From Eledone cirrhosa (Eukaryota), in the NCBI GenBank assembly GCA_964016885.1, contig CAXHJY010001667.1, positions 9,066 to 73,065 on the forward strand: a stretch of DNA of 64,000 nucleotides, in the 5' to 3' direction. Both the position numbers and the translations under genes were made by a program. The notes beneath the pieces were generated by a model. That model was not told where the DNA came from, did not search any database, and was given only the letters and a program-made list of their open reading frames with translations. The first letter of the stretch is position 1, and each line of letters opens with the position of its first letter. Below, one piece after another: positions 2,980 through 33,872 of the stretch.

Positions 2980-3018
<39 letters not shown>

Positions 3019-3070
3019 ATAATAATAAATTTGAAGAAGCACCGATTCTTTGCTTAAACTTTAATTTGTA

Positions 3071-3127
<57 letters not shown>

Positions 3128-3130
<3 letters not shown>

Positions 3131-3311
3131 AAAAAGTATGACCCGACGGCAGAGCTCAAGCCGTTTCGACGGCTATTTCTGGACTACGTCGAAACGGCTT
3201 GAGCTCTGCCGTCGGGGTCATACTTTTTCCTATTTCCCACTCTACTACCCTAAGTATTGAGTACTCTGGTGCGTTATGGTCCGTCTGGTTCCTTACCACA
3301 ATTCCTTTGTT
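3128..3311 (+). mobile_element. Penelope-like fold-back element, family A (3' half of a hammerhead plus bulged-hairpin tail)
   Basis: Inverted repeat 3128-3232; GAAACGGC-ttgagctct-GCCGTC stem III with GUC triplet; ACTC-TAC-loop-GTA-TT-GAGT at 3239-3262; (TA)n flanks. Other copies at 8437-8636(-), 22320-22406, 27432-27622 and 42317-42376. Confidence 0.75.
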
Positions 3312-3327
3312 ATATATATATATATAT

Positions 3328-3490
3328 GAGTTTCAGAAGATCCCGTTAAGGGTGAAAGCAGCGATTCTTTGCTTAAACTTTAATCTATTATTTTAATAAA
3401 TATTTGCTCTACGGTTCTTATATATTTGATATATATTTATCCTTATCGAGCCCTCTTTGGATTTTAGTCTTCAAATTTATTATTATTACT
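3328..3490 (+). mobile_element. Penelope-like element, family E
   Basis: Flanked by (TA)n. Full or partial copies at 3017-3080, 4058-4129(-), 23724-23917, 42392-42505, 45331-45450, 51552-51610 and 51666-51730, several with an inverted arm. Confidence 0.75.
3329..3379 (+). ncRNA. Variant type I hammerhead ribozyme (CAGAAGA core, CUU triplet)
   Basis: Stem I agttt/aaact; core CAGAAGA; stem II ccc-gttaa-ggg; GAAA; stem III AGCA/TGCT; H17 = U. Confidence 0.6.
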
Positions 3491-3580
3491 AAATATATAT
3501 ATATATTTATAAATATAGTTTATAAATATAGTTTTCCATTTATTTAATATTGTATATATATTTATATATATATATATATA

Positions 3581-7460: not shown

Positions 7461-7789
7461 ATATATATATATATATATATATATAAGCATTTATATATAT
7501 ATATAAGCATATATGTATGCATAATATATATATATGCATATATGTATGCGTAAATATATGCACATTATCTATTTGACTGTCTATTTAGCTATTTCCCAGT
7601 GTCATTCATGACCTAAGGGAGTCTTTACCCTTTACCCTCATATCTAGCTATGTTTCTATATTTACCAAAATATCTTTGTACAAAAATGACAATACCAACA
7701 ATGAAAATCGAAACCCAATATCAGTTTGGAGGTATAGAACAATACATAGGAAGTTCAAAGACATCGTAAGTCACTAAATATATTTGATA

Positions 7790-7978
7790 ATTGTTTCTAC
7801 TTTTGGCACAAGGCCAGCAACTACCCAGTGCATTTCTGGTACTTTATTTTATCGACCCCGTAAGGATGAAAGGCAAAGTTAACTTCGACGAGATTTGAAT
7901 TCAAACCGTACAGGGACGTAACTATGATGGAAAGCATGGCGTCCGACTCTCTACTGATACTGCCAATTCACCGCCCTT
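7790..7978 (-). mobile_element. SINE family 1 with target site duplication taaatatatttgataat
   Basis: Matches the family consensus, with a direct repeat on both sides. Confidence 0.9.
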
Positions 7979-8150
7979 AAATATATTTGATAATGATTAA
8001 AGAAAATGTGAAAGAAAATTATTGTAATTAATTTAAATATATGTAAAATGAAATCAGATGATGGCCAAAGGGACAAGAAGTTGATGGAGATGTTTAGTTA
8101 AATACATTTTAAACTCTAGATCTTGTCATTTTCGGTGGGTATTATACTGG

Positions 8151-8236
<86 letters not shown>

Positions 8237-8243
<7 letters not shown>

Positions 8244-8424
8244 ATAAAATAAATAAGTCAAATGTTTAAAATTTGGCTTCGTTCATAACGAAGCCAAATT
8301 TTAACTTATTTTATTTTATTTTACTTTACATTACTCCGGAGTCACCAAACCAACCTGCGCACTTCGTCGAGTGCTCCAATCTGCATACTGAGGTGTTGGT
8401 ATACAACCAACATATACTCAAAAT
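8237..8424 (+). mobile_element. Fold-back element, family H, with bulged-hairpin tail
   Basis: Inverted repeat centred near 8285 (aaaatttggcttcgtt/aacgaagccaaatttt); ACTC-CGGAGT...ACTTCG-TC-GAGT at 8333-8372; (TA)n flanks. Confidence 0.65.
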
Positions 8425-8635
8425 ATATATATATATAACAAAGAAGGTGTGGTAAGGAACCAGGTGGACCATAACGCACCAGAGTACTCGATACTTAGGG
8501 TAGTAGAGTGGGTAATAGGTAATGAGTCAGGAACCCGACGGCTGAATTCTGGCCGTTTCGACAGCTAGATCCGAACTGTTCGGAGCTAGCTGTCGAAACT
8601 ACCGGAGCTCTGCCGTCGGGGTCCTGACTATTTCC

Positions 8636-8664
<29 letters not shown>

Positions 8665-8666
<2 letters not shown>

Positions 8667-8878
8667 TCATTTATATTAAGGCTTCAAAGTGAGTCTTCTT
8701 ACTCTGGAGTTTCACTTGTTTATCACAGGGTTATCAAATTAGATGTTCTTGTCTGATGACCCTGTGATAAATAGGCGAAACTCCAGAGTAACAAGACTCA
8801 CTTTGAGGCCTTAATATAGATGAATATTAAAACTCTACTTCGGTATTGAGTACTCCTTTCTCTCATCCGTCAACCACA
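8665..8878 (+). mobile_element. Penelope-like fold-back element, family B
   Basis: An inverted arm of about 70 bp (8665-8737) mirrors 8753-8826. It contains a complete hammerhead and a tail hairpin at 8832-8851. A related copy lies at 35606-35790. Confidence 0.8.
8747..8796 (+). ncRNA. Type I hammerhead ribozyme, intact core
   Basis: Stem I tcttgt/acaaga; CTGATGA 8753-8759; stem II cctgt/atagg; GAAA 8777-8780; stem III ACTC-ca-GAGT; GUA triplet, predicted cleavage after 8790. Confidence 0.8.
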
Positions 8879-8883
8879 TACAG

Positions 8884-27886: not shown

Positions 27887-27963
27887 CAGGGTGTCTCGAA
27901 AAAATGTATACACACTTTGATTAGAATGGTGTTGAAGTGTGTATATATTTTTGAGACACCCTG
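27887..27963. mobile_element. Tc1/mariner-type MITE (77 bp)
   Basis: TIRs cagggtgtctcgaaaaaatgtatacacactt / aagtgtgtatatatttttgagacaccctg; TA flanks. Confidence 0.85.
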
Positions 27964-28046
27964 TATATGTGTGTATGTATATATATATATAAATCTGAGT
28001 TTTTCGAATATTAATGATAATATTCGATTCGTGTTTTTTATTTATT

Positions 28047-28084
<38 letters not shown>

Positions 28085-28107
28085 GTTATTATTACTTTCA
28101 AAGTAAA

Positions 28108-28300
28108 AGGGCGGTGAATTAGCAGTATCAGTAGAGGGTCGGACACCATGCTTTGACGCATAGAGTTACGGCCCTTGCCATTCTGAGTTCAAATCCCGCC
28201 GAGGTTAACTTTGCCTTTCATCCTTGCGAGGGTCGATAAAATAAAGTACCAGTAATGTACTAATAATCGTTGGCCTTGTGCCAATAGTAGAAACAATTAT
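28108..28300 (+). mobile_element. SINE family 1 with ~20 bp target site duplication (attactttcaaagtaaaagg)
   Basis: Intact A and B boxes; flanking direct repeat. Confidence 0.92.
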
Positions 28301-28546
28301 TACTTTCAAAGTAAAAGGTGTCATGAAGGATACAAAATGAAACATCAAACATATGTCTTGCCTCTAAAAACAGCTCAATATAGAATTCAGAGAATAAAAT
28401 CGAGCCTTAATCTTTATATATATATATAGTGAAAGACTGAAAAGTAACATGGTCGGCTGTATAACAAGAGGCTTTATTTCAGGTATTAACAATTGTTTCA
28501 TTGATCCGCTGAGTCTAGATTACCTATAACGATAACTTGCTATCCC

Positions 28547-29429: not shown

Positions 29430-29745
29430 GTCTAAAATGTTAGGGTGGTTATTCGGCGGTCCTGGAGCATGTTATCTGTGGTGGCTGCTGGGTGCCTAAC
29501 TATTTTCTGACAAAAAACTGAGTAAATATTTTGTTCTATGTAGGCATGACTTACACATCTTATTGCTGGAGTTAAGGCAGTGAATGTTTCCATACAAGCC
29601 ATTTCTCGGTGTTGCAGAGCCCACATCTCTTAGAACCATTGATGTAGGGCTTATATCTTTCTGCTGTCTTCCAGTTGATGTTGTAATCAGTAGAGTTCTC
29701 TTCCAACTTCCATACACGACTGAAGAGCTTAGACGATCTAGCATC
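29430..29745 (-). pseudogene. Degenerate RTE-clade LINE C-terminal fragment
   Basis: Frames give SSVVYGSW, NGLYGNI and RHPAATTDNMLQD, resembling RTE motifs SVLLYGSETW, NEELYG and GRP..TYID.L. Confidence 0.5.
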
Positions 29746-29854
29746 TCTACTTTAGTCTAGCATTTTCTAAAGTAGAAGATGCTAGACTAAAGTAGAAGAT
29801 GCTAGATGGTCGGTCGTCCACTTGTCTATGATTTTCAGCCCCATAGATTTTATC

Positions 29855-30133
29855 TGTTATATTCCTTTGTTATATTTCGAATACCTGATGATATCACCGG
29901 ATTCATACGGAACCCGGTCATTGAAATGATCATAGTATAATAAACCTTTCAAGGATTTACACAAATCCAGCCTCCTGTTATTTTATTATAATAATTAACT
30001 CCGTACTCGCACCACCAACTACACAAACGAAGACGGGTGAACTGCATTACGTTGAGTACTCTCCATAATATTACATCGAGATTGACCATACGAAATGACC
30101 AACTCTATCCAGTCGTGAACCAACAAACCTAAA
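29855..30133 (+). mobile_element. Penelope-like pLTR plus tail, family D
   Basis: Contains a hammerhead at 29881-29938 and ACTC-CGTA...TACG-TT-GAGT at 29998-30057. A second tail-less copy lies at about 30265-30403. Confidence 0.75.
29881..29938 (+). ncRNA. Type I hammerhead ribozyme with loopless palindromic stem III
   Basis: Stem I atac/gtat; CTGATGA; stem II accggattc/gaacccggt; GAAA; ATGATCAT palindrome; AUA triplet. Confidence 0.72.
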
Positions 30134-30139
30134 TAAATA

Positions 30140-30185
<46 letters not shown>

Positions 30186-30424
30186 CTTGAAGGCGGCCAC
30201 TCGGACTGACAACTGCTAATTTTTTGGCCGCCTTCTCGTCTTGGGCATCTCTCTGGATTGTGTCTATTATATTCATTTGTTAAATTTCGGAATACCTGAT
30301 GATGTCACCGGATTCATACTGAACCCAGTCATTCAAATGTTCATAGTATAACAAACCTTTAAGGAATTACACCAGTCCAGCCTCCTGTTATTTTATAATA
30401 ATTTTATATATATATGTATGTATA

Positions 30425-32455: not shown

Positions 32456-32620
32456 GGGTACACTAGAAGAGGAAGACCAAGGTTAACATATGTTGATGCC
32501 CTAAGGACAGACACTGGTCTGTTGGAGATGCAGGATATGGCAGCGATAATGAGGGACAGAGACCGCTGGAGAGAACTCGTCCATGGATCTCGGGAATTTT
32601 ACCCGCCTTAGATAGATAGA
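32456..32620 (+). mobile_element. 5'-truncated RTE-clade LINE 3' end with (TAGA)n tail
   Basis: Reads GYTRRGRPRLTYVDALRTDTGLLEMQDMAAIMRDRDRWRELVHGSREFYPP* (32456-32611), matching the RTE C-terminal pattern R.RGRP...D...A.DR..WR. Confidence 0.85.
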
Positions 32621-32698
32621 TATATGCAGGGTGTCACCAAAAATGTATACACACTTTGATTACTTGTACAGGCAATATTTATTAGAATGCTGTTGAAG

Positions 32699-32750
<52 letters not shown>

Positions 32751-33872
32751 AGTTTAAACAATGAATAAATAAGACAAGATAAAGTAGTTATTTAATCAAA
32801 TACATTACGATCGTTTCAGAGAGCAAAAAATACCGATGTGTGGACCAGTTGATGACAGTTATGCATCTACATACCATTAACCTCGAAAAGGCATATTTAG
32901 TAGTTTGCTGTCTATCGTCAGTAAACTATGTTTCTGAGAATAGACGTAATCAATTTTCAAAAATAATGATATATTATATTCAGACAAATCGAATAGTTTG
33001 TTTTGTGAAATATTTTATTCAATTATTCATACAAAATTTGTTTATTCAGAAAACTTCAATAGCATTGCTTAGATACTTACTTTCTGTATATTATATGTCA
33101 ATATATAATATAAGAAACCATTATATGTATATATATAATACATTTAAATCATGCCGGCATTCGTAATATATAATGCAATGAAACAAGGAAATAAAAAATA
33201 TATGATGAAAATATCTAATTAATCCTTGATAGATTTTACTAGAAAATTCCTCTGGTCAAAAGAAATGCCAAGGAAATATTTATGAGATACATATTTGCAT
33301 TTGGTGTCAACGATATTTATTCCAATATCTCGTAAAATATCATGTCATAATAATTTGTAATTTTAATATTTTTGTATATGACTTCTGGGAATCGAAGAAA
33401 AAAAACTTTCATCCCGAGACATGTACCATTAATCTACAATATATATATATACCATTAGTGTATATTTTCTAGAATCGTATGGAAGATGGAATAGACCTCT
33501 GCGCTGGCTTTGACGATGTATGTTCCAATTATTTGATCAACGGAACATCCTATTCCTCAAATTAACTGAACATTCTACAGACATATGCATGTACTCCCAG
33601 GGATACGTAGCATGACACTGTGTGTGACAAGGATACACGTTTGAATTTCAGGTACAGTCTATGTTATGTTGGAATGATAGAAGCTGAGTAGTTCATAGAT
33701 ACGTGTACAGTTAATTTAATTCTCGGATTCAACTAACACAGCGTGTGTCATAGCTGGTACTATGAATTATAGGTATAGTCAACCCGAAGACGGGTTTCCC
33801 TATTTTCGTCTGCTCAATTTCTCTCACAAAACTTGGTGTCAACTCGAGGCTATGGAAATTCTCAAAGTTTAT

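Follow-up and report, generated by a model that had tools for sequence, protein, structure and literature searches.

Penelope-like elements (PLEs) are the sister group of telomerase reverse transcriptases (RTs). Tails on one side only, inverted 5' copies and a pair of internal starts of reverse transcription have already been published for PLEs (in the available parts of PMC11167929, PMC8557442 and PMC3846280), and the origin of inverted pLTRs with a tail at one end only is described as unresolved in the available text of PMC8557442. A search of full-text literature, whose coverage excluded most subscription papers (e.g., the earlier Penelope biochemistry) and to which the image-only supplementary figures of PMC11167929 might add, revealed neither a conserved pair of hairpins nor a fixed offset nor twin priming described for PLEs. 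Here we describe Hydra-type PLE copies that end 6-9 nt before either of two hairpins, and propose, with a probability of roughly 0.72, that each hairpin positions one RT start and that the characteristic inversion results from two primings, one per cut strand of the (TA)n target.

The window, a stretch of 64,000 nt from a 3.0-Gb animal genome (Eledone cirrhosa), is rich in short fold-backs within (TA)n runs (Table 1). In family B, positions 8754-8827 are mirrored by 8663-8736. The fold-backs are 5'-truncated PLEs in (TA)n, and the Penelope-like origin suggested by an earlier note on this DNA is supported by RT-endonuclease ORFs together with the hallmarks of the group, i.e., partial tandems forming pLTRs, an inverted 5' copy and a tail on one side. 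Four inversions in the window are non-overlapping. The hammerhead-like core of family B scores 15.3 bits (E 0.82) against Rfam Hammerhead_3, below the gathering score of 48.5, and an Rfam scan of the whole window has no hammerhead among the best 150 of 354 matches, all microsatellite-driven. Hammerhead core motifs are present in families B, C, D, J and Q, with none clear in A; in nearly all family E copies, CAGAAGA replaces CTGANGA in the core (window positions 3331-3337; loci L075 and L202).

Table 1. Penelope-like copies and their parts in the window (positions count from its first nucleotide).
Feature	Position	Strand	Remarks
Family B inverted arm	8663..8736	-	Outer end is site S1, against the (TA)n run
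Family B direct piece, 5'-truncated pLTR with tail	8745..8883	+	Ends at site S2, then (TA)n
Family B type I hammerhead-like core	8753..8790	+	CTGATGA at 8753, GAAAC at 8777, predicted cleavage after 8790
Family B site S1	8823..8827	+	-9 to -5 from the hairpin; ATAT microhomology with target
Family B bulged hairpin H1	8832..8851	+	ACTC, inner stem, TT bulge, GAGT
Family B remaining tail up to S2	8852..8883	+	Second hairpin lies outside short copies
Family A insertion	3126..3312	+	S1 arm, direct arm, hairpin 3239, tail to S2
Family A insertion	8436..8635	-	Hairpin 8509
Family H insertion	8233..8424	+	Hairpin 8333
Family C insertion	22130..22298	+	Hairpin 22241
Family G insertion	51802..51949	-	Hairpin 51870
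Family A non-overlapping inversion	22317..22407	+	S1 arm joined to the last ~38 nt of the tail alone
Family E non-overlapping inversion	45330..45449	.	Inverted tail piece and direct arm
Family E non-overlapping inversion	42390..42505	.	
Family E non-overlapping inversion	3013..3083	.	24-nt tail piece
Family E pLTR with tail	3329..3492	+	Hairpin 3406; same sequence serves as pLTR in full-length Hydra elements (709 aa) elsewhere in the genome
Family D tailed copy	29848..30137	+	Hairpin 29998
Family D tail-less copy	30258..30402	+	Ends at S1

Several other repeats share the window. A SINE-like repeat of ~220 nt is present in more than 15 copies (including 7775-7997, 1162-1379, 28039-28304, 42643-42841 and 44532-44802), and PLE arms are a frequent place for its insertion. 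There is a short MITE-like inverted repeat family with TA flanks (27882-27968, 13461-13534 and 32620-32751), an 80-nt palindrome containing internal direct repeats (29732-29811), and a long tandem array with a period of ~198 nt and long open frames (11110-12965). At 91%, positions 1-66 match a portion of the endonuclease region of a Neptune-type PLE. At 51536-51736, two tail-only family E pieces point their tails at each other from either side of a (TA)n run and are probably two insertions.

Families A, C, E, J and Q are tied to RT-endonuclease ORFs of the Hydra clade. A single ORF with an RT and a C-terminal endonuclease was found in E (709 aa), J (737 aa) and Q (809 aa). The family E pLTR leads upstream into an endonuclease with CxCX5C, CxxC and CxH motifs, a Hydra-type ORF starts after the tail in families A and C, and the pLTRs of families A and R are preceded by the end of a Hydra endonuclease. 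The ORFs carry the motifs of the clade, namely the CxCX5C linker, CxxC and CxH around conserved E and N, DKT and an RWK-like motif; the latter reads RWR or RWT, and DKT reads DKS in one Q copy. The CCHH motif appears, by eye, to be absent from the Hydra-type ORFs. Tandem spacings of ~3.3 kb (E), 3.5 kb (A), 3.9 kb (Q) and 4.0 kb (J) exceed the length of generally <3 kb given for the Hydra clade, which the available text of PMC8557442 presents as a tendency and not as a strict criterion. No Pfam family was matched by the endonuclease part of family E; the same part, used as a query, gave 73,867 candidates at first pass in the genome. For J and Q (loci L251-L310), many matches with full-length open frames and 99-100% identity at the protein level mark very young families.

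Family B is old (72-88% identity upstream). We group it with the others provisionally, by the common hairpin, hammerhead core and target; its end adjoins Hydra ORF remnants at one locus (L235), which may be a separate insertion. We found no tie to an ORF for families D, G and H. Some other assignments were considered and rejected. Searching the genome with Pfam GIY-YIG yielded mostly elements of the Neptune type, whose ends are without this hairpin, and a family D copy beside one of them is a separate insertion. The idea that the 5' ends of family B mark a transcription start was dropped because longer copies continue through them. The fold-backs are not non-LTR retrozymes (non-coding tandem hammerhead monomers), since the same pLTRs run into ORFs, nor MITEs or foldback DNA transposons, which have equivalent terminal inverted repeats, since the ends are unlike in 88 of 89 classified pairs.

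According to the earlier note, the inverted arms stop shortly before a bulged hairpin in families A, B, C, G and H, and this was confirmed in the window, with intervals spread by TA microhomology. We expressed each end as the interval from the last non-(TA)n base to the last matching base, relative to the first hairpin base. This gives -9 to -6 for family A (last mirrored base 3233, hairpin 3239), -9 to -5 for B (8827 and 8832), -10 to -8 for C (22233 and 22241) and, from a single copy, -13 to -10 for G (51880 and 51870). For family H the boundary before the hairpin at 8333 likewise stands (-7 to -2), the last mirrored base being measured at 8331 rather than the ~8322 given before, and the second family D copy indeed ends near 30402, at about -6. 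The description of family E copies as arm-only had to be revised for several of them, with those at 3013-3083, 42390-42505 and 45330-45449 joined to an inverted tail piece.

The relation to the hairpin extends beyond the window. We sampled 100 evenly spaced 10-kb stretches of the genome together with selected loci, leaving out of the counts L001 (which overlaps the window), L007 (a duplicate of L006), L171, L176, L177, L178 and L185 (which overlap other loci), matches below 36 bits or of low complexity, and ends less than 30 nt from a locus edge. Of the tail-less ends that precede a microsatellite in the 100 stretches, 69 of 107 lie at -13 to -4; the expectation for ends placed at any TAT or ATA of the reference is 25.2, with a maximum of 42 in 20,000 simulations. 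The ends lie there more often than by chance. Across 17 families they are bimodal, falling either at site S1, about 6-9 nt 5' of the bulged hairpin, or at site S2, the end of the tail: the evenly spaced stretches contain 86 S1 and 103 S2 ends and 45 others, many of which are subfamily mismatches or nested insertions. The commonest offsets from S1 to the hairpin are -9 to -6 in family A (28/34) and -7 to -3 in E (38/54), with a minor site in E at -11, 4 nt 5' of the main S1 (8/54 copies). When each arm is measured against its own partner, the last matching base lies at -11 to +1 in all 69 overlapping pairs, which refines the position but is no independent test, as these pairs had been classed as S1/S2 beforehand. 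Microhomology of 2-4 nt with TA occurs at S1 and S2 alike, and a TA-type run follows 254 of 308 S1 or S2 ends, in line with the (TA)n insertion of the Hydra clade. At L097 and L103, a further Hydra family has a first hairpin with a bulge of 1 nt, and its tail-less copy likewise ends at -7 to -5.

With TAT or ATAT at both sites, and elements nesting in one another's (TA)n runs, one might suspect that AT-rich sequence 5' of the hairpin blurs the alignments or draws later insertions that split elements. TA microhomology alone, however, would put only 25 of the 107 ends between -13 and -4, where 69 were found, only 3 of 103 tailed pieces begin at S1 following a TA run, and the pairing rule described below would be left unaccounted for. 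We therefore consider such an artefact largely refuted and very improbable.

Long copies with plain 5' truncation, no inversion and no tail also end at S1 (L075, L144, L173, L189, L209 and L211). Since such plain copies end there, S1 appears to be a priming site and not a place where fold-back synthesis stops. The earlier note had proposed that the hairpin fixes either an RT start or a nick. The hairpin-fixed end is upheld, and the long S1-ended copies, having neither inversion nor tail, fit an RT start better than a nick; what had been missed is a second hairpin that fixes the end of the tail.

This second hairpin was found in family E copies that read through S2. The tail end is followed by 6 nt and then by a hairpin that is smaller but alike in form and lies 38 nt ahead of the ATG; a second hairpin after S2 is likewise present in families J and Q. 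The distance from S2 to the second hairpin equals that from S1 to the first in A, E, J and Q, and the commonest intervals all include -7. From S2 these are -7 to -4 in A (34/36) and E (44/52), -9 to -7 in Q (6/7), and -10 or -7 to -4 in J (9/9), and the two hairpins are spaced by 78 (A), 89 (E), 91 (J) and 90 nt (Q). The hairpin of family A was predicted first and then searched for, as tail end plus hairpin start. This gave 420 genome matches compared to 0 for a reversed control, and the spacer is 6 nt in 98 of 100 among the matches listed. Four of the five fetched copies contain the hairpin and the ORF start, and the fifth (L317) ends just inside the second hairpin. For family C the same prediction was partly met: tail end plus hairpin start gave 195 matches, and the read-through form has no canonical second hairpin, with a divergent, unbulged 4-bp stem 8-10 nt after S2. 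Read-through searches for family B gave 5 and 1 matches, with one decayed candidate (L315) lacking a profile match and no intact copy, so that neither a second hairpin nor an own ORF was found for this family. When the whole two-hairpin segment was folded (MFE), both local hairpins were obtained in J alone.

The hairpin follows the consensus RCTC-stem-TY-GAGY in at least 17 repeat families of the genome. Among 21 genome hairpins the outer pair is A-T in 12, G-C in 9 and mismatched in 0, in a set chosen with a stem filter. We also scanned metagenomes, where 78 loci encode relatives; 44 have a usable ORF start, and the remaining 34 were left out because the ORF start is missing or the match spans more than one unit. 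A hairpin lies 5' of 31 of these 44 Hydra ORFs, compared to 0 of 180 control ORF windows and 1 of 44 reverse complements, with near-identical loci kept separate. Two hairpins are present at 18 loci, two of them counted via long-range pairing with a short first stem visible. The inner pairs, scored here without a stem filter, match in 71/83, 57/82 and 40/57 cases versus shuffled means of 56, 32 and 22, counts reached by 0 of 2000 shuffles; covariation is thus well above the shuffles, bearing in mind that about 15 of the 83 matches are probably spurious and that shuffles ignore relatedness. Hairpin matches are 99 sense versus 7 antisense. G-U versus A-C counts are 9 versus 1 in the genome of the window and 12 versus 12 in the metagenomes, which does not settle whether RNA or DNA is the relevant form. 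Of the 25 end events in the metagenome loci, some 8 are informative, with positions from -3 to -11; two fall at -13, and mismatches or contig ends make up the remainder. By eye, the same hairpin can be recognised in the published consensi Hydra-2_Amil and Hydra-2_Ajap, and twice in Hydra-1_Ajap (coral and sea cucumber; PMC8557442, in the part available). A viral scan and an initial metagenome scan gave no relatives.

The two ends are paired in a strict manner. Among 119 head-to-head pairs, S1/S2 accounts for 88, S1/S1 for none and S2/S2 for one, and in the other 30 an end remained unclassified (binomial P = 3e-25 on the classified pairs); the evenly spaced stretches alone give 39 S1/S2 pairs among 48, with no S1/S1 and no S2/S2 (P = 4e-12). 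The 27 long family E copies comprise 18 S1/S2, no S1/S1, one apparent S2/S2, which is a tandem read-through, and 8 other or edge cases. The halves share no sequence in 16 of the 88 S1/S2 pairs and overlap in 72; in L201, for example, a 36-nt inverted tail sits on a 3.2-kb S1-ended copy. The tail may be carried by either half, inverted or direct. The expectation that arms lack the tail did not hold: the rule is that one end is S1 and the other S2, and among ORF-bearing copies the inverted piece is often tailed while the direct copy is tail-less (L201, L210, L214 and L217). A sensitive search for tiny partners found 6 in 121 tested cases (4 S1/S2, 2 unclassified; controls 0/363), indicating that most remaining ends are unpaired or extend beyond the reference.

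Non-Hydra PLE families of the same genome (L048, L073, L074-L086, L071-L084 and others) have two fixed ends 37-60 nt apart without this hairpin, showing that the hairpin is not universal. Inversions with unlike ends, again without this hairpin, occur in L048, L073 and L077, and all 11 terminated copies of one Neptune-type family share a single end.

The pairs bear on how the inversions arise. The non-overlapping ones require two primings. The 72 overlapping pairs are unlike the products of simple one-template twin priming and count against two-hairpin priming; many look like near-perfect palindromes, as would be obtained if a single priming at the tail end were followed by fold-back and self-copying of the cDNA, with the endonuclease recognising the hairpin as DNA and cutting 5' of it, or synthesis stalling there. 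Self-priming has been proposed before (PMC3846280), as has endonuclease-mediated resolution (PMC8557442), and PMC11167929 cites the tail as required for endonuclease recognition of DNA in D. virilis, each in the part of the source available. However, self-priming would need later deletions in the 16 non-overlapping pairs, gives no account of long S1-ended copies without tail or inversion, and leaves the second hairpin at equal distance from S2 unexplained. Moreover, symmetric inverted DNA should yield like ends when cut, and these were seen in 1 of 89 pairs. We consider this route unlikely.

The hairpins might instead mark cut sites in the RNA, with the transcript cleaved 6-9 nt before each and ordinary target-primed reverse transcription (TPRT) proceeding from the 3' ends of two RNA species. 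Fixed ends would be a natural outcome, and RNA-seq read ends at start sites are reported in the available text of PMC11167929. According to the same text, though, the Poseidon enzyme begins internally on an uncut template, and free RNA species would pair randomly, not 88 to 1, making this scheme less probable still than self-priming. With 88 of 89 classified pairs unlike-ended, symmetric cutting of inverted DNA is excluded, as is a random choice between two RNA species; the pattern points to a single complex in which each target strand uses up one hairpin.

Fixed-site twin priming at two hairpins, possibly by a dimer, is thus the likely course of events, and can be sketched as follows. The hairpins in the sense RNA would serve as protein-binding rulers, and the nicked (TA)n strand would pair through its 3' terminus over 2-4 nt with the RNA and then be extended. 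Two cDNAs would stop at variable points and be joined head to head. One protein dimer may hold both hairpins and so force S1/S2 pairing, which is the least certain step. Overlapping halves could come from one template copied twice, with strand displacement, or from a second repeat unit; to our knowledge PLE RTs are without RNase H, so that one template could be copied twice. The published Poseidon enzyme agrees with such a course, as it begins internally at two sites, extends both strands and is predicted to form a dimer. Points that count against a two-hairpin rule are family C, without a canonical second hairpin, family B, for which no second hairpin was found, family G at -13 to -10 in its single copy, the minor -11 site of family E, and the in vitro behaviour of the Poseidon enzyme, whose start sites did not differ by strand and had no homology to the cut DNA.

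More tentatively, and with chances that we place somewhat below even, integration may be obligatorily two-primed: one dimer would bind two RNA hairpins, each protomer nicking one strand and starting cDNA at a fixed distance, so that a portable RNA module of ~100 nt sets both ends, perhaps carried on a unit-length RNA circle. The junctions in copies of unit length fall at -20 to +130 in 9 of 16 E, 4 of 12 J and 3 of 12 Q copies reaching that point, an excess between the hairpins of only 2-4-fold that is partly selected and does not establish a circular template.

Two primings at hairpin-marked sites on opposite strands would likely explain the inverted, one-tailed shape of the insertions. The hairpin pair, the fixed offset and the strict end pairing turn the puzzle of inverted pLTRs into one that a handful of direct mutations could address, using a kind of in vitro assay that already exists. 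The two-hairpin rule would also guide the annotation of PLE boundaries and, in genomes such as this, move MITE-like fold-backs by the tens of thousands into a different class. If the proposed scheme is true, priming makes both target junctions, unlike in LINEs, which is relevant to RNA-templated insertion tools.

The closest relatives are the Hydra-clade PLEs (Craig et al. 2021, PMC8557442; here and below, statements on published systems refer to the available parts of the sources). [quoted passage not shown] The units here are longer, at 3.3-4.0 kb, as are the tails (~60-145 nt versus 30-40 nt), and the available text does not describe the hairpins, their link to the two ends, or the S1/S2 rule. 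Non-LTR retrozymes (bioRxiv 10.64898/2026.07.22.740005, available part) likewise include short hammerhead-bearing sequences related to PLE pLTRs; the repeats in the window, by contrast, are 5'-truncated or inverted copies of ORF-bearing elements and not tandem hammerhead monomers.

In terms of mechanism, the nearest system is PAc, the Poseidon PLE of the green anole (Frangieh et al. 2024, PMC11167929), which also has two internal RT starts bounding a tail near the pLTR-ORF junction, AT-rich targets, nicking and extension of both strands, and a predicted dimer. PAc has one AC-rich stem-loop inside the ORF, whereas here two sequence-conserved hairpins lie in the 5' UTR with a start 5' of each. 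In vitro, the available text gives no start-site difference between strands and states no homology to the cut DNA for PAc, in contrast to the 2-4 nt target microhomology and strict end pairing that we read from genome copies. L1 twin or dual priming (PMC2837659, available part) shares the use of both target strands as primers, giving head-to-head inverted pieces. In L1, however, the second priming occurs at a variable internal site and is exceptional, while here both sites are fixed, structure-marked and in routine use; and whereas L1 twin priming leaves no duplication between the pieces, only 16 of the 88 pairs here are non-overlapping and 72 overlap.
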